DNA of 64,000 nucleotides from Candidatus Dormiibacterota bacterium. GTDB taxonomy: Bacteria; Chloroflexota; Dormibacteria; Aeolococcales; Aeolococcaceae. This document shows, piece after piece, positions 12,205-41,840 of this stretch. The position numbers and the translations under genes were made by a program. Each line of letters starts with the position of its first letter. The first letter of the stretch is position 1. The DNA is taken from NCBI GenBank assembly GCA_963777285.1, contig CAVZPR010000001.1, positions 589,039-653,038 on the forward strand. The letters run 5' to 3'. The notes beneath the pieces are model-generated. The model was not told the DNA's origin and did no database searches. It saw only the letters and a program-made list of their open reading frames with translations.

Positions 12205-12810
12205 CTGGAGCGCGACTGGTTCGCGCGGCCCGCGGCGACGGTGGCGCGCGGCCTCGTGGGCTGCACGCTGCTGGTCGACGGGGACACCGCGGACGCGGTC
12301 TGCGCACGCATCGTCGAGGTGGAGGCGTACGAGGGCCTCCGCGACCCGGCGTCGCACGCGCACCGCGGTCCGACGCCGCGCGCCGCCATCATGTTCGGTG
12401 CCGCCGGCTTTCTCTACGTGTACTTCTCGTACGGCGTGCACCACTGCGCCAACATCGTCAGCGACGTGGACGGGACGGCCGGTGCGGTGCTGCTGCGCGC
12501 TGCGTCGGTGGAGCAAGGCGCAGACGTCGTCGCTCGCCGCCGCGGTGTGCGGGATCACGACGCGCTGCTGCGCGGGCCAGGAAACCTGTGTCGCGGCTTG
12601 GGAATCTCACTCGCGGACAATGGGATGGACCTCTGCGCGCCGGGGGCGCGGCTGACGGTGCGGTCGCGCGACGCCGAGCCACCCATCGCCGTCTCGCGCC
12701 GCGTCGGCATCAGCGCCGCAGCCGACCGCGAGCTGCGCTTCACGTGGCGCGATCATCCTGCGGTGTCGGGACGGCGGCCACGGCCGCGCGTCAGCGCATC
12801 TGCGATGTGA
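12205..12810 (+). CDS. mpg: DNA-3-methyladenine glycosylase (MPG/AAG family); probable CTG start
   Basis: VEVEAYEG..DPASHAHRGPTPRAAIMFG.AG.LYVYFSYGVHHC is the MPG family core. The conserved N-terminal LERDWFARPAATVA lies upstream of the first canonical start (GTG 12241). Confidence 0.85.
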   Translation: MERDWFARPAATVARGLVGCTLLVDGDTADAVCARIVEVEAYEGLRDPASHAHRGPTPRAAIMFGAAGFLYVYFSYGVHHCANIVSDVDGTAGAVLLRAASVEQGADVVARRRGVRDHDALLRGPGNLCRGLGISLADNGMDLCAPGARLTVRSRDAEPPIAVSRRVGISAAADRELRFTWRDHPAVSGRRPRPRVSASAM

Positions 12811-13963: not shown

Positions 13964-14005
13964 CGCCCGCCCGGCCCGCCGAAGCCGTGTCGAGGTGAAA
14001 GAGCC

Positions 14006-14132
14006 GTCGCGGGTCCTGCCGCCTTCGGGTGCCCCCCGCGCGGCTCCTCGGGAATCGCCGCGCGGGTTCCTCCCCTCCGGCGTCACCCGCGACGGCACAT
14101 CGATGGTCTTCCCCTCCGGCAGGACCCGCGAC
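14006..14132. repeat. 127-nt GC-rich long-hairpin intergenic element
   Basis: 16-bp closing stem GTCGCGGGTCCTGCCG (14006-14021) / CGGCAGGACCCGCGAC (14117-14132) around ~95 nt. The interior contains an internal 10-bp hairpin CCCGCGCGGC/GCCGCGCGGG and a C(UUCG)G-type loop. Size and build match the elements at 21043 and 22660. Confidence 0.6.
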
Positions 14133-14161
14133 GAGATAGCCGACTCGCCGGACGCGATGGC

Positions 14162-14722
14162 ATGACGCGGGTGCTCGGCGTCGATCCTGGGTTGGGCCGC
14201 ACGGGCATCGCGCTGGTGGACGGCGCGCCCGGGGCGCTGGAGCTGGTCAGCGCGGCGCGGCTGGACACCGTGCCGCAGACGAGCGAGGCGGCGCGCCTGG
14301 CGAACCTGTTCGCCCTGGTGCTGGATGCGATGGAGACGCTGCGTCCCGAGGTGGTCGCCGTGGAGCAGCTTTTCCTGTCGACGAACCGGCGCACCGCCAT
14401 GCGCGTGAGCGAGGCGCGCGGCGTCATCCTCTGCGCGGCGGGCCGGCTCGGTCTGCCCGTCGCCGAGTACACGCCCAATCAGGTGAAGGAGGCGGTGTGC
14501 GGCCACGGCGGCGCGTCAAAGCCGCAGGTGGGCCGCATGACGCGGCAGCTGCTCGGGCTCGACACCGCCTCGGACGACGTCGCCGACGCCTGCGCCGTCG
14601 CCGTCTGCCACCACCACCGCGCGGGTCTCAGCACGCTGCTTCGGGCGGCGCCCCGTGTCATGCCCGCGCGCCTGGAGGCTGCGGTCGCGCGGGCTCGGGC
14701 CAGGCTCGGGGTGGTGCGGTGA
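14162..14722 (+). CDS. ruvC: Holliday junction resolvase RuvC
   Basis: VLGVDPGLGRTGIALVD ... AVEQLF ... DVADACAVAVCH. Confidence 0.95.
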   Translation: MTRVLGVDPGLGRTGIALVDGAPGALELVSAARLDTVPQTSEAARLANLFALVLDAMETLRPEVVAVEQLFLSTNRRTAMRVSEARGVILCAAGRLGLPVAEYTPNQVKEAVCGHGGASKPQVGRMTRQLLGLDTASDDVADACAVAVCHHHRAGLSTLLRAAPRVMPARLEAAVARARARLGVVR

Positions 14723-18561: not shown

Positions 18562-20205
18562 GTGTTCCGGATCACCGGTTTTCGGCTGGCCATCGTCGGC
18601 CTCGTGGTCTTGGGCGCGCTCTTCGTCGACGGCTTCAGCCTCGTCCCCAACGCCAACATCGCGGGCCGGGCGATCACGGTGCACAAGGGCCTCGACCTGC
18701 AGGGCGGCACCGAGCTGGTCCTCGCCGTCTGCAGGGGGCCGAACGATCCGCCGGGCGCGGACTGCCGCAACGGTCCGCCCAACGGCGCATCGGTGAGCAG
18801 CGCGCAGCAGTCGACGCTGCCGATCATCCAGCAGCGCGTCAACGCGCTGGGTGTGTCCGAAGCGGTGGTGCAGGCGCAGGGAGACGATCAGATCCTGGTG
18901 CAGCTGCCGGGTGTCAGCCTGGACGAGGCCAAGGCGGCGGTGGGCACGACCGCGAAGCTGTATTTCGCGACGCCGGTTGCCGGTGCGCCGCCAACCGCGC
19001 AGCAGCTGGCCCACCCCGACCAGGCGACGCGCAACTTCATCGCCGACCAGCAGAACCACTACAACCCGGCGCAGTTCGGTGACACGCTCTACTACCCCGC
19101 GGACTACCACTGGAAGATCGACAACAACATCGACGCCAGTGACGTGCAGTCGGCCGACGTGGGCACCGACAGCCTCGGCAACATCGCCGTCGACATCACC
19201 TTCAACGGACACGGTGCCTCCGAGTGGGAAAAGATCACCAACGCTGCCTTCGCGGCGTACGAGACCAACACGACCAATCCGCCGCCGCAGGCATTCATCG
19301 CCATCTTCCTGGACAACGACGTGCTCACCGCACCGGTGGTGCAGCAGGGAGGTCAGAGCAACCAGACGCAGATCACCGGCGGATTCAGCACCACCAGCGC
19401 GCAGCAGCTGGCCAACGACATCAACGCAGGCGCGCTGCCCGCCGAGATCGGCACCGTGCAGACCACGGAGGTGAGCGCGACGCTGGGCAGCCAGACGGTG
19501 CAGTCGAGCATCGTCGCCGGCGCGGTGGGGCTGCTGATCGTGATCATCTTCATGATCGGCTACTACCGGTTCCCCGGCCTGCTGGCCACGCTCGCGCTGC
19601 TCATCTACGCGGCGATCGTCTTCGCGCTCTTCATGCTCATCCCGGTCACGCTCAGCCTCGCCGGTCTGGCTGGCTTCGTGCTCAGCGTGGGCATGGCGGT
19701 CGACGCCAACGTGCTCATATTCGAGCGAACGCGCGATGAGCTTCGCCACGGCCGCGGTGTCGCGCTGGCGGTGGAGACCGGATTCCGCCGTGCGTTTCCG
19801 GCCATTCGTGACAGCAACATCTCGACGATCATCGCCTGCCTGGTGCTGTTCGCTTTCGGCACCAGCGTGGTGCGCGGATTCGCACTCACCCTGGGCATCG
19901 GCGTCATCGTGTCGTTCTTCACGGCGATCACCGTCACCCGGTCGCTGTTCGCCTGGGTGCTGCGCTGGCGAATCGGGCGCAACCCGACCCTCTACACGCA
20001 GATCCACGAGGAGTACGAGGAGCGTCCCCCCGGGGACGGTTCGACATCGTGCGCGCGCGCAACTGGTACTTCGCCGGGTCTCTGGCGATCATCATCCCCG
20101 GGATCCTGGCGATCATCGTCTGGGGCTTCAACCTGGGGATCGACTTCCGCGGCGGCAACCGCCTCGACGTGCACCTGGCCAATCCGGCCACGCAGGCGCA
20201 GGTGA
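18562..20205 (+). CDS. secD: Protein translocase subunit SecD; 3' end abnormal and possibly a SecDF fusion
   Basis: LDLQGGTELVL, periplasmic P1 domain, six C-terminal TMs (GIGVIVSFFTAITVTRSLF). After ...HEEYEERPP the frame runs 157 nt into secF as low-complexity S/R/G-rich sequence before its stop. Confidence 0.85.
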   Translation: MFRITGFRLAIVGLVVLGALFVDGFSLVPNANIAGRAITVHKGLDLQGGTELVLAVCRGPNDPPGADCRNGPPNGASVSSAQQSTLPIIQQRVNALGVSEAVVQAQGDDQILVQLPGVSLDEAKAAVGTTAKLYFATPVAGAPPTAQQLAHPDQATRNFIADQQNHYNPAQFGDTLYYPADYHWKIDNNIDASDVQSADVGTDSLGNIAVDITFNGHGASEWEKITNAAFAAYETNTTNPPPQAFIAIFLDNDVLTAPVVQQGGQSNQTQITGGFSTTSAQQLANDINAGALPAEIGTVQTTEVSATLGSQTVQSSIVAGAVGLLIVIIFMIGYYRFPGLLATLALLIYAAIVFALFMLIPVTLSLAGLAGFVLSVGMAVDANVLIFERTRDELRHGRGVALAVETGFRRAFPAIRDSNISTIIACLVLFAFGTSVVRGFALTLGIGVIVSFFTAITVTRSLFAWVLRWRIGRNPTLYTQIHEEYEERPPGDGSTSCARATGTSPGLWRSSSPGSWRSSSGASTWGSTSAAATASTCTWPIRPRRRR

Positions 20206-20996
20206 TCGCGGCGGTGGAATCGGTCGCCGGAGACCTGCGCCCGCAGGTCGAGGCGGAGGCCGGCAACCACTGGGCCATCTCCACGCTTCCCTCCGACGTC
20301 GGCCGCATCGACCAGATCGACGCCGCGCTGCAGAAGCCGCCGCTCGGCATCGCCACCAAGAACGGTCAACCAGACGTGCAGGTGCAGCAGGTGGGGCCGA
20401 CGATCGCCGCCAACCTCGTGTCCACCGCGATCATCCTCATCCTGGTCAGCGCGGCTCTGATCGCGATCTATCTCGCGTTCGCGTTCCGACGGCAGCGCAG
20501 CATCTCGCCGTGGCGCTTCTCCGCGTGCACCTTCTTGAAGTTGCTGCACGACGTGTTCGTGCTGGCCGGGATCTGGGCGATCCTGGGCCACTTCAGCGAC
20601 CTGGGGCAGGTCGACGAGCTCTTCGTCACCGCGGTGCTGACCTCGGTCGCGTTCTCCATCCACGACACGATCGTGGTGTTCGACCGCGTGCGCGAGAACC
20701 TGCGCGTGGGGCCGCGTCTCACCTTCGACCAGGTGATCAACCTCTCGACGGTGCAGACCATGACGCGCTCGCTGAACACGTCGCTCACCGTCATCTTCGT
20801 GCTGCTGGCGCTGGTGATCTTCGGCGGCGTCACCATCCGCGGCTTCGTGCTCGCCCTGCTGATCGGCATCGCCACCGGCACCTACAGCTCGATCTTCAAC
20901 GCGTCGACGCTGCTCGTCGCCTGGCAGAAGGCCCGCGGCGAGACGCAACACCCGTCGAAGTCGGGCCCGCGTCGCGTGCAGGTGAGAACGGCGTAG
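20049..20996 (+). CDS. secF: Protein translocase subunit SecF
   Basis: RARNWYFAGSLAII...GFNLGIDFRGG ... FDRVRENL ... TGTYSSIFNASTLL. The conserved FDIV lead-in lies upstream of the GTG at 20049 in the same frame. Confidence 0.9.
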   Translation: MRARNWYFAGSLAIIIPGILAIIVWGFNLGIDFRGGNRLDVHLANPATQAQVIAAVESVAGDLRPQVEAEAGNHWAISTLPSDVGRIDQIDAALQKPPLGIATKNGQPDVQVQQVGPTIAANLVSTAIILILVSAALIAIYLAFAFRRQRSISPWRFSACTFLKLLHDVFVLAGIWAILGHFSDLGQVDELFVTAVLTSVAFSIHDTIVVFDRVRENLRVGPRLTFDQVINLSTVQTMTRSLNTSLTVIFVLLALVIFGGVTIRGFVLALLIGIATGTYSSIFNASTLLVAWQKARGETQHPSKSGPRRVQVRTA

Positions 20997-21042
20997 GTTT
21001 CTCCCGCCAGGGAGGATGCGCGGTGTCGTCGGTGGCATGAAC

Positions 21043-21160
21043 GGAGGAGGTGAGGCCCCGAAGGGGGCGTCTCGGAGCCGCGGTGGTCCCCGCGGCGCGA
21101 GCCGAAGGCGAGACCGCGAAGCGGTCGAGACGTGTCCCCCAGAGGGGCCTCACCTCCTCC
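21043..21160 (+). repeat. 118-nt structured hairpin element in the rimP-nusA leader (copy A)
   Basis: 17-bp closing stem GGAGGAGGTGAGGCCCC (21043-21059) / GGGGCCTCACCTCCTCC (21144-21160). Internal hairpins GCCGCGG-TGGTCC-CCGCGGC, GACCGC-GAA-GCGGTC and CCCC-CAGA-GGGG. About 80% identical to the reverse complement of 22679-22774. Confidence 0.75.
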
Positions 21161-21212
21161 GTCGGGCCACACGCCGAGCGCTCCTCCTCCGGACGATACC
21201 GACCCCGTGCAT

Positions 21213-21680
21213 ATGAACAGCGACACGCCGCCTGACTTCGACGCCCTGCTGCGACCGGCGCTGAGCCATCTGGGTGTCGAGCTGCTCGACGTGCAGTGGT
21301 CGGGCAGGGGCAAGGGCGCGGTGCTGCGGCTGACGATCGATCGCGAGGGAGGCGTGACGCTCGACGACTGCGAGCGTGCCTCCAACACGGCGTCGGCGGT
21401 GCTCGACGCCTACGACCCGATACAGAGCGCGTACCGGCTCGAAGTGTCGTCCCCCGGGGCGGAGCGTCCGCTGCGCTCACTGCCGGAGTGGCGGGCGGCG
21501 CTGGGGAGGCGGGTCAACGTGCGCGCCGGCGGACCGGACGGCGAGGTGGTCGTCGAGGGTCGCCTGATCGCCGTGAGCGAGCTTGCGGTGGAGCTCGAGG
21601 TGCGCGACCGGCGCACCGCCCGCGTCCGCTCGGTGCCCCTGGCAGACGTTCTCGCGGCGCGCATCGTGGTCGACATCTGA
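21213..21680 (+). CDS. rimP: Ribosome maturation factor RimP
   Basis: ATG 21213. LLRPALSHLGVELLDVQWSGRGKGAVLRLTIDREGGVTLDDCE ... YRLEVSSPGAERPL. Confidence 0.9.
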   Translation: MNSDTPPDFDALLRPALSHLGVELLDVQWSGRGKGAVLRLTIDREGGVTLDDCERASNTASAVLDAYDPIQSAYRLEVSSPGAERPLRSLPEWRAALGRRVNVRAGGPDGEVVVEGRLIAVSELAVELEVRDRRTARVRSVPLADVLAARIVVDI

Positions 21681-22643
21681 TGAGCGCGGACGCGGACGCC
21701 GAGCCGCTGGCGGCGCTGCACGACGCCGCCCTCGAGACGCACCTCGACGCCGCCGAGATCGCCCGCGCGGTGGAGGCGGCGGTCGCGACCACGTACCGCC
21801 GCCTGGTGGACGACGACCCCGCGATCCGCGCTCGGGTGGACCTCGCCAGCGGCCGCTGGGCCGTGTACCGCACCGGCGAGACCGGGGAGGAGCAGGTCAC
21901 CGTGGCCCTCGCCGACTTTCCCCGGCAGGCGGCCGCGGCGGCGCGGCAGGCGGTGGCGGAGCGGCTCTCGGTCGCGACCAACCGCCGGGTCCTCGCCGAG
22001 GCCGCCGAGCACCACGGCCAGCTGATCGACGCCATCGTGGAGCGCCCGGCCGGCCGCTCCTGGTACGTCGACGCGGCCGGCGTCCCCGGCTACCTGCCCC
22101 CGGAGGAGCAGATCCCGGGCGAGCGGCTGCAGCGCCGGCAGCATCTGAAAGTGGTCGTGCTCGAAGGCCGCCGCCGGGTGCACGACGCGGTGGTCGTAGT
22201 GTCGCGGACCCATCCCATCCTGCTGCAGCGCCTGCTGGAGCAGGAGGTGCCCGAGCTGCATGAGCGGGCAAGTGGTGATCCGCGGCATCGCCCGCGAGCC
22301 GGGGCGCCGCACCAAGGTCGCGGTCGAGGCGCCAGCCGAGGACATCGACCCCCAGGGCGCGTGCATCGGCCCGCGGGGCGTGCGCCAGCGGGCGGTGACC
22401 TCCGAGCTCGGCGAGGAGCAGGTGCAGATCATCGCCTGGTCCGCCGACCCGGCCACGCTCGTGGCGAACTCCCTGAGCCCCGCCTCGGTCGTCGCCGTCA
22501 CGCTCGACGACGTGACCGGCACCGCCCGCGTCCAGGTGCCGGCCGATCAGCTCTCGCTCGCCATCGGCCGCGCCGGCGAGAACGCCAGGCTGGCAGCTCG
22601 CCTGAGCGGCTGGCGGATCGACATCCACGCCGCGCCGGAGTGA
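21680..22643 (+). CDS. nusA: Transcription termination/antitermination factor NusA; reading frame broken (one extra nt near 22265)
   Basis: NTD+S1 in the frame of ORF 21296..22789 up to ...LLEQEVPELHE. KH1-KH2 follow in ORF 22260..22643 (GQVVIRGIAREPGRRTKVAV ... ACIGPRGVR ... LSLAIGRAGENARLAARLSGWRIDI). Total length 964 nt is not a multiple of 3. Confidence 0.85.
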
Positions 22644-22659
22644 GCGAAGCGCTTGATCT

Positions 22660-22793
22660 TCAGTCACAAGGCGGCCGGACACCCCTTCCGGGGACAGGTC
22701 TCGACGGCTTGGCCGTCTCGCCTTCCGCCTCGCCGCCGGGGCCGCGGCGGCTGCGACACGCCCCGTGCGGAGTGCCGGCCGCCTCGTGACTGA
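22660..22793 (-). repeat. 134-nt structured hairpin element (copy B, inverted relative to copy A)
   Basis: 19-bp closing stem TCAGTCACAAGGCGGCCGG (22660-22678) / CCGGCCGCCTCGTGACTGA (22775-22793) with 1 mismatch. The interior reverse-complement aligns to 21060-21143. Its right arm covers the ylxR start region. Confidence 0.75.
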
Positions 22794-23106
22794 GGATTCG
22801 AAGCCGAGCCACCCGCAGCGCACGTGCGTGGGATGCCGGCGCATCCGCCCCAAGGGCGAGCTGCTCAGGCTGGCGGTCGAGGCCGGCGGCGGTCGCGTTA
22901 CGATTGACGTGAGCGGCCGGCTTCCTGGTCGCGGCGCGTACGTGTGCCGGGACACGCCGGCCGAGTGCTTGCGTCAAGCGTTGCGGAAGCGTCAGGTTTC
23001 ACGCCCGCTCCGCGTGGGCCATGATGTAATCGACAACTCCGCGCTGGGCGTCCAGCTCAGCCGGCTGCACGAGGAGACGCCCCCATCGCCACCGTCAAGA
23101 AGCTGA
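22786..23106 (+). CDS. ylxR: YlxR/RnpM (DUF448) RNA-binding protein
   Basis: RTCVGCRRIRPKGELLRL ... GRGAYVC. Start is GTG 22786 or GTG 22765. Canonical position between nusA and infB. Confidence 0.85.
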   Translation: MTEDSKPSHPQRTCVGCRRIRPKGELLRLAVEAGGGRVTIDVSGRLPGRGAYVCRDTPAECLRQALRKRQVSRPLRVGHDVIDNSALGVQLSRLHEETPPSPPSRS

Positions 23107-24887
23107 CGCTGCCCGCCACGCTCACCGTCGCTGAGCTGGCCGAGCGCGTCGGCGTGTCCGCGCCGCAGGTCATCAAGTACCTGATGGCCAACGGCGTCAT
23201 GGCCGCGCAGAACCAGCCCGTCGACTTCGAGACGGCGGCACTGGTCGCCGACGAGTTCGGCTTCGAGGCCGAGAGCGAGGATGCGGCTGCCGCTGCCGCA
23301 GCGGCGCAGGCGCCCGGCGCCGACGGGGCACGCCGGCGCCACCCGCTCCTCGATCTGAGCAGCGAGGACCCGGCGGCGCTCGTGTCCCGGCCGCCGGTGG
23401 CGGCGGTGCTGGGCCACGTCGACCACGGCAAGACGTCGCTCCTCGACCGCATCCGCGAGACGCGGGTCGCCGCGGGCGAGGCCGGGGGCATCACCCAGAC
23501 GATCGGTGCCTACCAGGTGGACCGCAGCGGCCGGCCGATCACGTTCATCGACACCCCGGGCCACGAGGCCTTCACCGCGATGCGTGCGCGCGGCGCAGAC
23601 GTCACCGACGTCGCGATACTCGTCGTCGCCGCAGACGACGGGGTCATGCCGCAGACGGACGAGGCGTTGCAGCACGCGCGCAGCGCCGGGGTGCCGATCG
23701 TGGTGGCGGTGAACAAGGTGGACAAGGACGGGGCCAATCCCGACCGCGTCCTGCAACAGCTGGCCGACCGCGGCCTCGTGGCCGAGCAGTTCGGCGGCGA
23801 CACCCCGGTGGTGCGCACCAGCGCCAAGACGGGGGAGGGGATCGACGACCTGCTCAAGACACTGCTCGCGACGTCCGAGGTCTACGTCGACCCCAAAGCC
23901 AACCCCAAGCGCCCAGCCGTGGGCACGGTGATCGACTCGCACCTCGAGCGTGGCCGCGGCGCGATCGCCACGGTGCTGGTGCAGAACGGCACGCTGCGCG
24001 TCGGCGACATCGTCGTCGCGGGGCCGGTGTTCGGCAAGGTCCGGGCGCTCGTCGACGACACCGGCAAGCGCGTCAGCGAGGCCGGACCGAGCACGCCGTC
24101 GGTGCTGATCGGACTGCCCGACATCGTGTCGGCGGGCGAGGTCTTCCAGGTCGTGGACACGGAGCGTGCGGCGCGCGGCCTCGCGGAGCAGCGCGCCCTC
24201 GCCGAGCGGCAGCGCGCCGAGCAGCCGGTGCGGCGCATCACCCTGGCCGACCTCGCCTCGCAGGTCACCGAGGGCAAGACCAAGGCACTCAACCTGGTTC
24301 TCAAGGCGGAAGCGAACGGCTCCCTCGAGGCGCTGCGCGGCCAGATCACGAAGATCGAGGACCCCAGCGTCAAGATCAAGATCGTCGGCGAGGGGGTCGG
24401 GGCGGTGAGCGAGTCCGACGTGAACCTGGCGGCGGTGACGGACGCGATCGTCATCGGCTTCAACGTGCGCCCCGACGACCGGGCGCGTGCCGCCGCCGAA
24501 GACCAGGGCGTCGACGTGCGCTTCTATGAGGTCGTGTACCAGGCGACCGACGACATCGACAAGGCCATCAAGGGGATGTACGAGCCCACGATGGTGGAGA
24601 TCTTCCAGGGTCGCGCCGAGGTGCGCCGTGTGTACACGGTCGACGGCCGCCCGGCGATCGCGGGGTCGCACGTCGTCGACGGACGGATCATCCGCAACGC
24701 CGTGTGTCGCGTGCTGCGCGACGGCAGGGAGATCGCGCGCAGCCGGATCGCGGACCTCAAGCGTTTCAAGGACGACGTCCGCGAGGTGGCGCACGGATAC
24801 GACTGCGGCATCACGCTCGCCGACTTCAGCGAGTTCCAGGAAGGAGACATCCTCGAGGCTTATTCCGTCGAGCAGCAGAACGCCTGA
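23085..24887 (+). CDS. infB: Translation initiation factor IF-2 (short form); start codon uncertain and non-canonical
   Basis: G-domain [28 protein letters not shown]-terminal domains complete. The IF2_N helix [22 protein letters not shown] begins upstream of the first canonical start (GTG 23154). ATC 23085 sits 9 nt after GAGGAG. Confidence 0.9.
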
Positions 24888-32915: not shown

Positions 32916-33562
32916 TCCCCGGAGCCGCGCCGCCGCCAGCCCTACAATCCGGCGCGATGCAGGCCACCACGGACCAGCTGCTGGAGCTGCACGGCCGTGT
33001 CCGCGGTTGCGTGGCCTGTCCGCTGCACCTGACGCGCATCCAGGCGGTGCCGGGGTACGGCCCGGTCACGGCGCGGATCATGGCCGTCGGGGAGGCGCCG
33101 GGAGAGACCGAGGACCGCGAGGGCAAGCCGTTCGTCGGCGCCGCGGGACAGCTGCTCACCCGGCTGCTCGAGGGCGTCGGCCTCAGCCGGCGCGACATCT
33201 ACATCACCAACGTGATCAAGTGCCGGCCACCCGGCAATCGAGACCCCGAGCAGCCCGAGGTGGACGCCTGCAGCCACTTCCTGGACGAGCAGGTCGGCAT
33301 GCTGCGGCCCGCGGTGATCCTGCTGCTGGGCCGCCATGCACTGTCGCGCCTGCTGCCAGGCGCCGGCAGCATCACCCGCCTGCACGGGGAACGCATCCGC
33401 CGCGGGGACCGCGTGTACGTGCCGCTGTACCACCCGGCGGCCGCCCTGTACAACGCCAATCTCCTCGAGACCCTGCAAGCTGACATGGCGCGCGTGCGGC
33501 GCTACCTCGACGATGCAATTGGCCCCGCCGAACCCTCCATGCAGATGGCCCTCTTTGAGTAG
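32912..33562 (+). CDS. udg: Family 4 uracil-DNA glycosylase
   Basis: C..CPL, GEAPGETEDREGKPFVGAAGQLL, ITNVIKCRPPGNRDP, HPAA. GTGA overlap with asd; an alternative ATG is at 32957. Confidence 0.88.
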   Translation: MIPGAAPPPALQSGAMQATTDQLLELHGRVRGCVACPLHLTRIQAVPGYGPVTARIMAVGEAPGETEDREGKPFVGAAGQLLTRLLEGVGLSRRDIYITNVIKCRPPGNRDPEQPEVDACSHFLDEQVGMLRPAVILLLGRHALSRLLPGAGSITRLHGERIRRGDRVYVPLYHPAAALYNANLLETLQADMARVRRYLDDAIGPAEPSMQMALFE

Positions 33563-37702: not shown

Positions 37703-38341
37703 ATGCCGGCTCGCGAGCGGTTTCGCGGCGCAGCACGGTTCGTTCCGCCTGACGCCGGGCTGGACACGATGCGGGCGGCGGCGCAGTCGTGCGAGGGCTG
37801 CGACCTCTATCGCAATGCGACGCAGGCCGTGTTCGGCGAGGGCGAGGCACGTGCTGTCGTGATGCTCGTGGGGGAGCAGCCCGGTGACCGCGAGGACGTC
37901 GAGGGCCACCCGTTCGTCGGGCCGGCCGGCCGGCTCCTCGACGCGGCCCTGCTCGAGGCGCGCATCGACCGGCGCGCCGTGTACATCACCAACGCGGTGA
38001 AGCACTTCAAATGGGAGCCACGAGGCAAGCGGCGCATCCACAAGAAGCCGAGCGCCGGTGAGGTCGACGCGTGCAGGCCCTGGCTCGAAGCGGAGATCGC
38101 CGCCGTCGATCCGCGGATCGTCGTGTGCCTGGGCGCCACAGCCGCCCAGGCGCTGCTCGGTTCGGGCTTCCGTGTGTCGCGTCAGCGTGGGCAGCTGCTC
38201 GCGCGGCCGGATGGACGGCGAATCCTGGCCACGGTCCATCCCTCGTCGATCCTGCGCGCACCGGACGACGCGGCGCGGCAGCTGGCCCGTGCCGAGTTCG
38301 TCGATGACCTCGCCGTCGTCGCCGCGACGCTGCACGGCTGA
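37703..38341 (+). CDS. udgX: UdgX-type family-4-like uracil-DNA glycosylase (KRRIH loop)
   Basis: C.GC.L, GEQPGDREDVEGHPFVGPAGRLL, ITNAVKHFKWEPRGKRRIHKKPS, VHPSS. The KRRIH insertion is the hallmark of covalent-trapping UdgX. Confidence 0.8.
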   Translation: MPARERFRGAARFVPPDAGLDTMRAAAQSCEGCDLYRNATQAVFGEGEARAVVMLVGEQPGDREDVEGHPFVGPAGRLLDAALLEARIDRRAVYITNAVKHFKWEPRGKRRIHKKPSAGEVDACRPWLEAEIAAVDPRIVVCLGATAAQALLGSGFRVSRQRGQLLARPDGRRILATVHPSSILRAPDDAARQLARAEFVDDLAVVAATLHG

Positions 38342-41267: not shown

Positions 41268-41770
41268 GCACGCGAAGCGCTCCGGCGCGGCAGCACAGGG
41301 AGACCCCCGACCGCGACGACGCGGCCGCCGCCGAGTCCGCCGCGCTGCGCATCCTCGGCGGTGCGGCGCAGTCCGGCGCCGCGCTGCAGCGGCGGCTGGA
41401 GCGACGCGGGTTCTCCGCTGAAGCGGCCGCGGCTGCCGTGGAGCGCTGCCGCGAGCTGGGCTACGTCGACGACGTGTCGCTTGCTGCGTCGGTCGCCGCC
41501 CGCCATCGCCGCGATCTGCACGGCCGCGCGCGCATCGTCGCCGATCTGCGCGCCCGCGGCGTCACCGCGGACGCCATCGCCAGCGCCACATCAGGGCTGA
41601 CCGAGGACGAGCAGGACGCCGCGGTCGCCGCGGCGCACCTGCTTCACGCGCGCCGCCACGACACCTCCCAGCCGCTCGACCAGGGCGCACGGCGGCGCAT
41701 CGGCGCGGCCCTGCAGCGTCGCGGCTTCAGCGGCGACGTCATCGTGAGGGCACTGCGCTCGCTCGACTGA
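41264..41770 (+). CDS. recX: RecA regulator RecX; probable CTG start overlapping the recA stop
   Basis: Three-helix RecX repeats ([25 protein letters not shown] ... ELGYVDD ... LRARGV ... LQRRGF). The first canonical start (GTG 41438) would delete the first repeat. CTG 41264 forms CTGA with the recA TGA. Confidence 0.8.
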
Positions 41771-41840
41771 TGCTCGCGGCGTGTGGGCGAAGTGAACGCA
41801 CGTCATCGCCCTCACGATGTCATCGGAGGGCGCGTGGCCT

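Follow-up and report, generated by a model that had tools for sequence, protein, structure and literature searches.

Two diverged inverted copies of a palindromic repeat enclose rimP-nusA in a Dormibacterota genome and may belong to a REPIN- or MITE-like element

In the genome of an uncultured bacterium, the genes rimP and nusA are enclosed by two long hairpin-forming sequences, which raises the question of whether these sequences serve the operon or arose by a process that acts on the DNA itself. The stretch analyzed here, hereafter the window, comprises 64,000 nucleotides (nt) of Candidatus Dormiibacterota bacterium (assembly GCA_963777285.1, contig CAVZPR010000001.1, positions 589,039-653,038 of the forward strand) with a G+C content of 71%. 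Element A lies in the spacer between secDF and rimP, and element B in the spacer between nusA and ylxR. On balance, and by a modest preference, the two elements are regarded as diverged inverted copies of a GC-rich palindromic repeat of about 92 nt, of the kind exemplified by hairpin-forming doublets of repetitive extragenic palindromic (REP) sequences, or REPINs, and by miniature inverted-repeat transposable elements (MITEs). The shared core is filed as a palindromic intergenic repeat (REPIN/MITE-like) outside any named family. The copies were inserted into very short gaps between genes of the secDF-rimP-nusA-ylxR-infB operon, later than the divergence of this lineage from all sampled relatives. 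According to the proposed mechanism, the core would have been copied either by a transposition-like process on single-stranded or hairpin DNA, with a preference for hairpin apices, or by template switching over a short distance during replication.

Element A (21043-21160, + strand) is a 118-nt hairpin in which a perfect closing stem of 17 base pairs (bp), GGAGGAGGTGAGGCCCC / GGGGCCTCACCTCCTCC, is built around a core of 92 nt (21056-21147, +). The ends of this core are imperfect terminal inverted repeats (CCCC-GAA-GGGGG-CGTCTC ... GAGACG-TGT-CCCCC-AGA-GGGG), and its interior contains hairpin H1 (GCCGCGG-TGGTCC-CCGCGGC), a weak 3-bp hairpin and hairpin H3 (GACCGC-GAA-GCGGTC). Element B (22656-22797, +), for which limits of 22660-22793 had been given earlier, is a 142-nt hairpin with arms at 22656-22678 and 22775-22797 (23 nt, 91% complementary). 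Its closing stem consists of 19 bp with one A.C mismatch, or of 23 nt at 91% if ATCT/GGAT is counted, and reaches 25 bp plus a bulge on the - strand. The core of B (22682-22772, -) measures 91 nt and is the opposite-strand homologue of the core of A.

Several methods recover the relationship between the two cores. A search for inverted repeats pairs 21101-21147 with 22682-22728 (47 nt, 83%) and 21058-21097 with 22731-22770 (40 nt, 80%), the A/B pair ranks first when the window is compared with itself using blastn (80% over 90 nt, E 7.6e-15), and 72 of the 92 columns are identical in the core alignment, with a core identity of 78-80%. The agreement among these methods bears out a sequence-only reading of the window, which had proposed two diverged inverted copies at these coordinates; its closing stems of 17 bp in A and 19 bp with one mismatch in B were reproduced on recomputation, as were the arms of A, GGAGGAGGTGA / TCACCTCCTCC, which resemble a Shine-Dalgarno (SD) and an anti-SD sequence. 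The homology is confined to the core, which is bounded by CCCC...GGGG. The terminal inverted repeats at the core ends (alignment columns 1-18 and 72-92) are conserved between the copies, whereas the outer 13-21 bp are not: beyond the core, the closing stem continues for 13 further bp in A and for 21 in B, and these sequences are unrelated. A covariance model of the core (R1), applied to the 64-kb window with filters off, retrieves A with 109.6 bits and B with 92.5 bits, and the next match (18.6 bits) lies inside a gene. In addition, Logan contig L014 (run ERR11594400), a separate assembly, matches positions 21068-22430 exactly apart from one base in nusA and reproduces the 3' 93 nt of A (21068-21160) base for base; A is therefore not an assembly artefact.

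Whether this arrangement is shared by other genomes was addressed with the orthologous region from thirteen loci of about seven relatives (L006-L013, L015-L018), whose RimP sequences are 66-74% identical to that of the window. In all of them secDF is fused, and the secDF-rimP spacer spans 17, 22, 27, 36, 45, 54 or 111 nt, compared to 216 nt in the window, where it holds element A. The nusA-ylxR spacer is about 6-15 nt long in the relatives and 142 nt long in the window (22644-22785), where it is filled by B, which extends 12 nt into ylxR. Similarly, the distance from the nusA stop codon to the RTCVGC codons of ylxR amounts to 8, 41 or 48 nt in the three readable relatives (L007, L015 and L017) versus 175 nt in the window. 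Model R1 has no match in any of the relatives' loci. The orthologous sites thus differ in presence and absence, with the sites of A and B empty in the fetched relatives, and these short spacers together with the lack of R1 matches indicate that A and B are insertions specific to the lineage of the window, acquired after its split from all sampled relatives. The sequence-only reading had considered the pair a conserved functional bracket and had itself named the absence of both elements at the same positions in relatives as a result that would speak against this; such absence is what is observed, in the closest relatives that the databases contain (RimP at most 74% identical), and a conserved bracket is not supported.

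The same comparison bears on a rather unlikely alternative, namely that A and B are useful cis-regulatory hairpins, with A acting as a leader of rimP-nusA (attenuator, pause or stability element) and B as an occluder of ylxR, whose form is kept by selection and whose common origin is incidental. RNase III processing of the leader and autoregulation by NusA are known for this operon in E. coli and B. subtilis, which counts in favor of such a role, as do the preserved pairing, the presence of a hairpin at the position of A in the leader of relative L010, and the sequestration of the only usable ylxR starts by the stem of B. Against it, the elements are absent in all relatives, where spacers of 6-54 nt suffice, and neither a U-tract terminator nor a consensus promoter accompanies them: no terminator-like site is present on either strand of 20500-23500, no U-tract follows either element, and no consensus promoter was found around A and B. 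Annotation with Rfam 15 yields 0 matches at the gathering score across the whole window. At E up to 10, the region of A matches no cis-regulatory family and no rimP-leader family (Firmicutes motif included), and the only cis-regulatory match in the region of B is a partial, chance-level hit to a hepatitis B virus element (8.2 bits versus a gathering score of 82); the other matches are microRNA-precursor-like or otherwise due to chance and far below thresholds. Further candidate classes were rejected as well. ARAGORN found nothing that would point to a tRNA-like origin, the RYYYAAC ... GTTRRRY motifs of integron attC sites are absent from A and B by inspection and the context is a housekeeping operon, and for retrons and ribozymes, diagnostic motifs or partner genes are absent, as are Rfam matches.

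A further set of observations concerns the fold of the elements. As sense sequences, A and B have minimum free energies (MFE) of -91.4 kcal/mol (z -8.0 versus shuffles) and -85.6 kcal/mol (z -5.5), respectively, and as antisense sequences -89.3 kcal/mol (z -8.4) and -95.9 kcal/mol (z -7.1). The core structure comprises a 4-bp terminal stem, 5+6 bp, the 7-bp hairpin H1, a 3-bp hairpin and the 6-bp hairpin H3, and both one long hairpin and a three-hairpin clover are predicted as alternative folds. Between A and B, three pairs show G-C/C-G swaps, one is changed to U.G and three are broken in B. Both compensated hairpins that had been reported before (GCCGCGG/CCGCGGC versus GCCGCCG/CGGCGGC, and GACCGC/GCGGTC versus GACGGC/GCCGTC) are real, and a third compensated pair is located at core columns 8/85. 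In a simulation of random substitutions, the probability of at least three compensated pairs is 0.02, and that of at most three broken pairs, given 19 substitutions, is 5e-4; a shuffle control with the two sequences (64/500) has no power. Loops show differences between A and B at twice the density of stems (10/30 versus 10/62). Based on these probabilities and on the distribution of differences, the hairpin is maintained, with pairing kept better than expected by chance.

The strand test, which considers G.U counts and energies, reveals no clear asymmetry: both strands fold about equally, A is slightly more stable in sense and B is 6-10 kcal/mol more stable in antisense. In the homologous orientation (A+ = B-), the copy at B is antisense to the operon. 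Since the two strands fold about equally, the predictions give no indication that selection acted on the mRNA strand in particular, and this lack of asymmetry, including the better antisense fold of B, also argues against cis-regulatory hairpins. A DNA palindrome predicts both the pairing beyond chance and the equal folding of the strands. The earlier conclusion that selection acted on structure rather than on sequence does not follow from compensatory changes in such a palindrome. REPINs frequently carry changes of this type (PMC3116915), and a single template switch during replication can introduce them (PMC8794818).

The outer stems, which are not shared between the copies, appear to have their own history. 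If A is removed, the remaining 98 nt of the window leader align colinearly with the 111-nt leader of relative L010, which contains an 81-nt hairpin (L010 4971-5051) with a 12-bp stem, GUCUCCGUCCGG/CCGGACGGAGAC, a z of -4.5 and no A core. The insertion point of A corresponds to the apex of the hairpin aligned from this leader. The left flank of A (21017-21042, +) is native leader sequence homologous to the 5' half of the L010 leader hairpin and pairs imperfectly with the right flank (21161-21211, +), which is also native leader and contains CCTCCTCCGG, a near-repeat of the 3' arm of A. As these flanks still pair in the window, the whole spacer is predicted as one long hairpin (-144.7 kcal/mol, z -7.9), and A sits at the tip of an ancestral rimP-leader hairpin. 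The spacer of L006, a close relative of L010, is only 54 nt long; compared with the L010 hairpin, this suggests that the leader hairpin grows and shrinks fast within the clade.

For B, the position of the ylxR start is informative. The only in-frame starts are GTG 22765 and GTG 22786, both of which are covered by the right arm of B, as had been noted, and no in-frame ATG, GTG or TTG occurs between B and RTCVGC. GTG 22786 is placed exactly 33 nt before RTCVGC, as is the ATG of L017; this match comes from a single relative, the start in L007 directly precedes RTCVGC, and N-terminal tails vary. The start position is probably ancestral. The right arm of B (22775-22797, +) contains this start (GTG 22786-22788) followed by ACTGAGGAT, and, given the spacing shared with L017, it is likely that this arm (CCGCCTC-GTGACTGA) is largely native and that the left arm (22656-22678, +) is its inverted copy. 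The latter, TCAGTCAC-A-AGGCGG, is the inverted complement of CCGCCTCGTGACTGA, which comprises the end of the spacer and the ylxR start, with one transition, and is a locus-specific stem outside the shared core. The 8-15-nt match between the arms of B is not due to chance; it requires a mutational process in which the opposite arm is copied, or else selection favoring a stem across the start codon. Template switching in quasi-palindromes copies the opposite arm and yields 'compensatory' changes in one step (PMC8794818, PMC7202029), and hairpin stems are both created and repaired in this way (PMC8794818). The perfect locus-specific stems and the G-C/C-G swaps may therefore result from template switching in quasi-palindromes and/or from selection for a stable hairpin. 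The differing closing stems, which had been interpreted as co-evolved, are better read as locus-specific flanks in view of the L010 leader alignment and the position of the ylxR start.

The classification of the core as REPIN/MITE-like is based on its resemblance to described repeats. REPINs are mobilized by Y1 transposases, the REP-associated tyrosine transposases (RAYTs), whose genes are flanked by the repeats, and occur in tens to hundreds of dispersed copies per genome. They are hairpin-forming inverted REP doublets with alternative hairpin and clover folds (PMC3116915). Like these, A and B contain a symmetric palindrome of about 100 nt that is extragenic, is found in either orientation within operons, has conserved inverted ends and a less conserved middle, folds into a hairpin or clover and carries compensatory changes (PMC3116915). 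The arrangement of two inverted REP-like units around a spacer, with a hairpin of about 70-110 nt, is found in the core. Head-to-head REP heterodimers with CGTC tags have also been described, and A is similar: an outward-facing CGTC motif stands at either end, and the small palindrome that follows it differs between the two ends (PMC3733652). In A these tags occur on both strands (CGTCTC / GAGACG), while B has CGTG and GGTC; they lie 2-5 nt from the stems, and CGTC is common at a G+C content of 71%. Among other families, the enterobacterial ERIC elements are of the MITE type, measure about 127 bp and form similar mRNA hairpins. The Correia elements (CREE) of Neisseria share with A and B a length of 100-150 nt, terminal inverted repeats, a conserved core, a location in transcribed spacers in both orientations and a presence that differs between related genomes, and their hairpins are bound and cut by RNase III and can alter the expression of neighboring genes (PMC2649163).

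Several observations weigh against the REPIN/MITE-like assignment. The stems of the REP-like units are 6-7 bp long, GC-rich and set off from the tag, and the units lack a CCA tail and belong to none of the 28 described REP families (GTAG or CGTC). CGTC is mutated in B, and the long locus-specific outer stems of A and B are unlike REPINs. In Correia and ERIC elements the terminal repeats are conserved, the target duplication is TA and copy numbers range from tens to hundreds, whereas the long outer stems of A and B are not conserved between the copies and no target-site duplication is visible, the flanks being inverted and not direct, with GGCC next to the core of A but not that of B. No transposase or RAYT is encoded among the 38 open reading frames (ORFs) of the window scanned against Pfam, which represent the main gene map; an Xer-like integrase is the only related gene among them. 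Furthermore, R1 finds no third copy in the 64-kb window, and the two known copies are 1.5 kb apart. A 21-base degenerate core pattern, GGCGAGACN{7,11}GTCGAGACNTGTCC, has only chance matches in the GTDB representative genomes (185,579) and JGI metagenomes (2 and 3 matches, respectively, all in unrelated coding-like or unstructured sequence), although a pattern that demands exact matches has little sensitivity for copies with 20% divergence and the source genome is outside the scanned collections. Neither blastn of A against plasmids nor of B against phages gives a match, and a six-frame peptide concatenate of both cores, meant to catch copies inside miscalled ORFs, returns nothing at E up to 10 from 5.8 billion proteins. 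Lastly, the distance of the relatives, whose RimP identity does not exceed 74%, leaves the timing and boundaries of the insertions coarse.

The small number of copies also fits the main rival, a one-off local inverted duplication by template switching, which is a possible explanation although clearly a less probable one. One copy would have been made as the reverse complement of the other in a single replication template switch, with the fork stalling and the strand being switched over about the length of an Okazaki fragment, resulting in a two-member family whose stems were extended and repaired by later switches within the quasi-palindromes. Exactly two copies, inverted and 1.5 kb apart, in 64 kb and nothing similar in the searched collections are in line with this, and, whatever copy number is assumed for the genome, random placement would seldom leave two copies at such a short distance and the remaining 62 kb empty (estimated at no more than about 2%). 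A single template-switching event can copy neighboring sequence as its reverse complement, complete a perfect stem and introduce several 'compensatory' bases together (PMC8794818, PMC7202029). The process is also in keeping with the perfect stems specific to each locus, of which one probably contains part of the native coding sequence of ylxR. Other hairpins of the window also combine a copy with a native or coding arm (the right arm of B and the recX end, 41734-41825) or, in the case of a third hairpin, C, possess a duplicated right arm. However, the divergence of 20-22% implies long persistence of both copies, and template switching is a mutational process and not an element family, with described events that mostly cover shorter lengths and ranges, usually tens of bases copied from tens to hundreds of bases away, than the approximately 92 nt and 1.5 kb required here. 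The terminal inverted repeats and the size of the core are typical of mobile palindromic repeats, and insertion families account more readily for the presence of the unrelated hairpin C nearby.

Hairpin C (14005-14133) is 129 nt long, with a perfect 17-bp stem around a 95-nt interior, and resembles A and B in architecture while its core is unrelated. It fills the yebC-ruvC spacer (13964-14162), which measures 199 nt in the window versus 33 nt in relative L018. Its left arm can alternatively pair with a diverged internal copy of the right arm (14078-14096), so that the hairpins are nested or alternative and C possesses a perfect new right arm along with an older, diverged one. The segment 14006-14132 had been put forward as a third copy of the A/B element; it is rejected as a member of this family, given that it has no core similarity and no match to R1. 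Because C is an unrelated insertion, the genome carries more than one kind of hairpin insertion. Two more inverted repeats were recorded in the window. At the 3' end of recX, an 18-nt inverted repeat (41734-41751 / 41808-41825, 89% complementary) has its left arm in the last codons and its right arm in the downstream spacer and looks like an inverted duplication of coding sequence. The inverted repeat at 12237-12390 was rejected as an element, as it lies in a coding region, within a 3-methyladenine glycosylase-like ORF.

Insertion as a palindromic repeat would still have consequences for the operon mRNA. Each element is predicted to fold alone, into a hairpin of -86 to -91 kcal/mol, and each hairpin would form once transcribed, local folding being favored co-transcriptionally. 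The stable duplexes of 17-25 bp could then act as a barrier to 3' exonucleases or as a substrate of RNase III, as known for Correia elements, which are bound and cut by this enzyme (PMC2649163), so that the transcript might become segmented, and B may occlude the ylxR start codon and thereby lower or uncouple translation of ylxR. Such RNA effects are probably by-products and not the reason for the existence of the elements.

The least probable of the explanations considered attributes a joint function to the two elements, namely that A and B pair within one operon transcript, as a duplex or by loop-loop kissing, such that rimP-nusA is looped out and an RNase III site is formed as at rRNA stems. 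RNase III sites occur in the metY-rimP-nusA-infB leader of E. coli, which belongs to the same operon family, and complementary flanks are found at rRNA. Over about 90 nt, A(+) and B(+) show a complementarity of about 80%, and with -181.9 kcal/mol the bimolecular A:B duplex gains about 5 kcal/mol over the two hairpins on their own (-177.0 kcal/mol). Judged from the sequence, the H1 loops at the apices (UGGUCC and GGGCCG) could also kiss if two wobble pairs are allowed. Nevertheless, the MFE structure of the 1.85-kb transcript 21000-22850 keeps both local hairpins, with 94 positions of A paired within A and 0 with B, and the hairpins would form first during transcription and cost about 90 kcal/mol to melt. 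In contrast to the RNase III stems of rRNA, A and B are each self-complementary with predicted local folds, and the arrangement is not conserved in any relative. The long-range duplex suggested by the sequence-only reading is thus not supported, given its small energetic gain and a whole-transcript structure without A-B pairs, and neither is an rRNA-like RNase III bracket, as the flanks are predicted to fold locally and the arrangement is missing in all relatives. A broader scenario, in which a mobile palindrome specifically seeks the single-stranded apices of hairpins already present and, along with stem growth by template switching, builds nested hairpins in essential operons of Dormibacterota, with this pair co-opted to set rimP-nusA apart from secDF and ylxR-infB via kissing or long-range pairing plus RNase III and to gate ylxR, is considered very unlikely.

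If the REPIN/MITE-like assignment holds, A and B would represent a previously undescribed palindromic repeat family from the uncultured phylum Dormibacterota and would clearly exemplify the entry of such elements into spacers of 6-17 nt in an operon that is essential and tightly coupled. The locus also illustrates that a very stable hairpin can take one of its arms from sequence that is probably the start region of a gene, and that 'compensatory' changes in inverted DNA repeats are alone no proof of a selected RNA, which calls for caution in automated RNA-motif discovery in GC-rich metagenome-assembled genomes. In practical terms, the start of ylxR (RnpM-type) is likely masked and the operon mRNA may be segmented.

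The genes around the elements are arranged on the + strand in the order yebC, ruvC, ruvB, queA, tgt, secDF, rimP, nusA, ylxR, infB, rbfA, nrnA, truB, ribF, rpsO and pnp. The bracketed genes are rimP (21213-21680, +; Pfam RimP_N) and nusA (21680-22643, +), and they are followed by ylxR (DUF448; 22786-23106, +; Pfam YlxR), whose start lies inside the closing stem of B. The window RimP is 100% identical to one NCBI protein, and the next best matches, of which those with a source name are labeled Candidatus Dormibacterota/Dormibacteraeota, reach at most 74%; the source lineage is therefore represented by one genome alone. In nusA, the reading frame switches from frame 2 to frame 0 at 22255-22262, where the window reads GAGCTGCATGAGC and Logan contig L014 reads GAGCTGATGAGC. 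The L014 version encodes an intact NusA (...EVPELMSGQVVIRGIAREPG...), and the frameshift is rejected as real biology, being a 1-nt assembly insertion at about 22259 that is absent from L014. In secDF, the frame of the tblastn match changes from 1 to 3 near 20030 (20028-20031), while SecDF is fused, with 815-830 amino acids, in all relatives; this switch is probably a second indel error, and the assembly seems to contain scattered 1-nt errors.

As for ylxR, the gene is not called in the records of relatives L007-L009, L015, L017 and L018 despite an intact ORF, and in an exact look-up against a collection of 15 billion proteins neither candidate product of the window ylxR, nor any of the small ORFs across A and B, is present. 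The ylxR/infB junction (window 23082-23153; L007 7702-7749) encodes a 15-residue peptide common to the window and this relative, with synonymous nucleotide differences only. Since this conserved peptide is located upstream of the first ATG, GTG or TTG in the infB frame, the translation initiation factor IF2 seems to start at ATC (window 23085) or ATA (L007 7705), overlapping the end of ylxR, and the infB start codon may be non-canonical. Elsewhere in the window, a direct repeat (37867-38002 / 33085-33220; 74% over 139 nt, E 2.7e-14) links the region of a gene of the uracil-DNA-glycosylase family with the region just upstream of RNase J.

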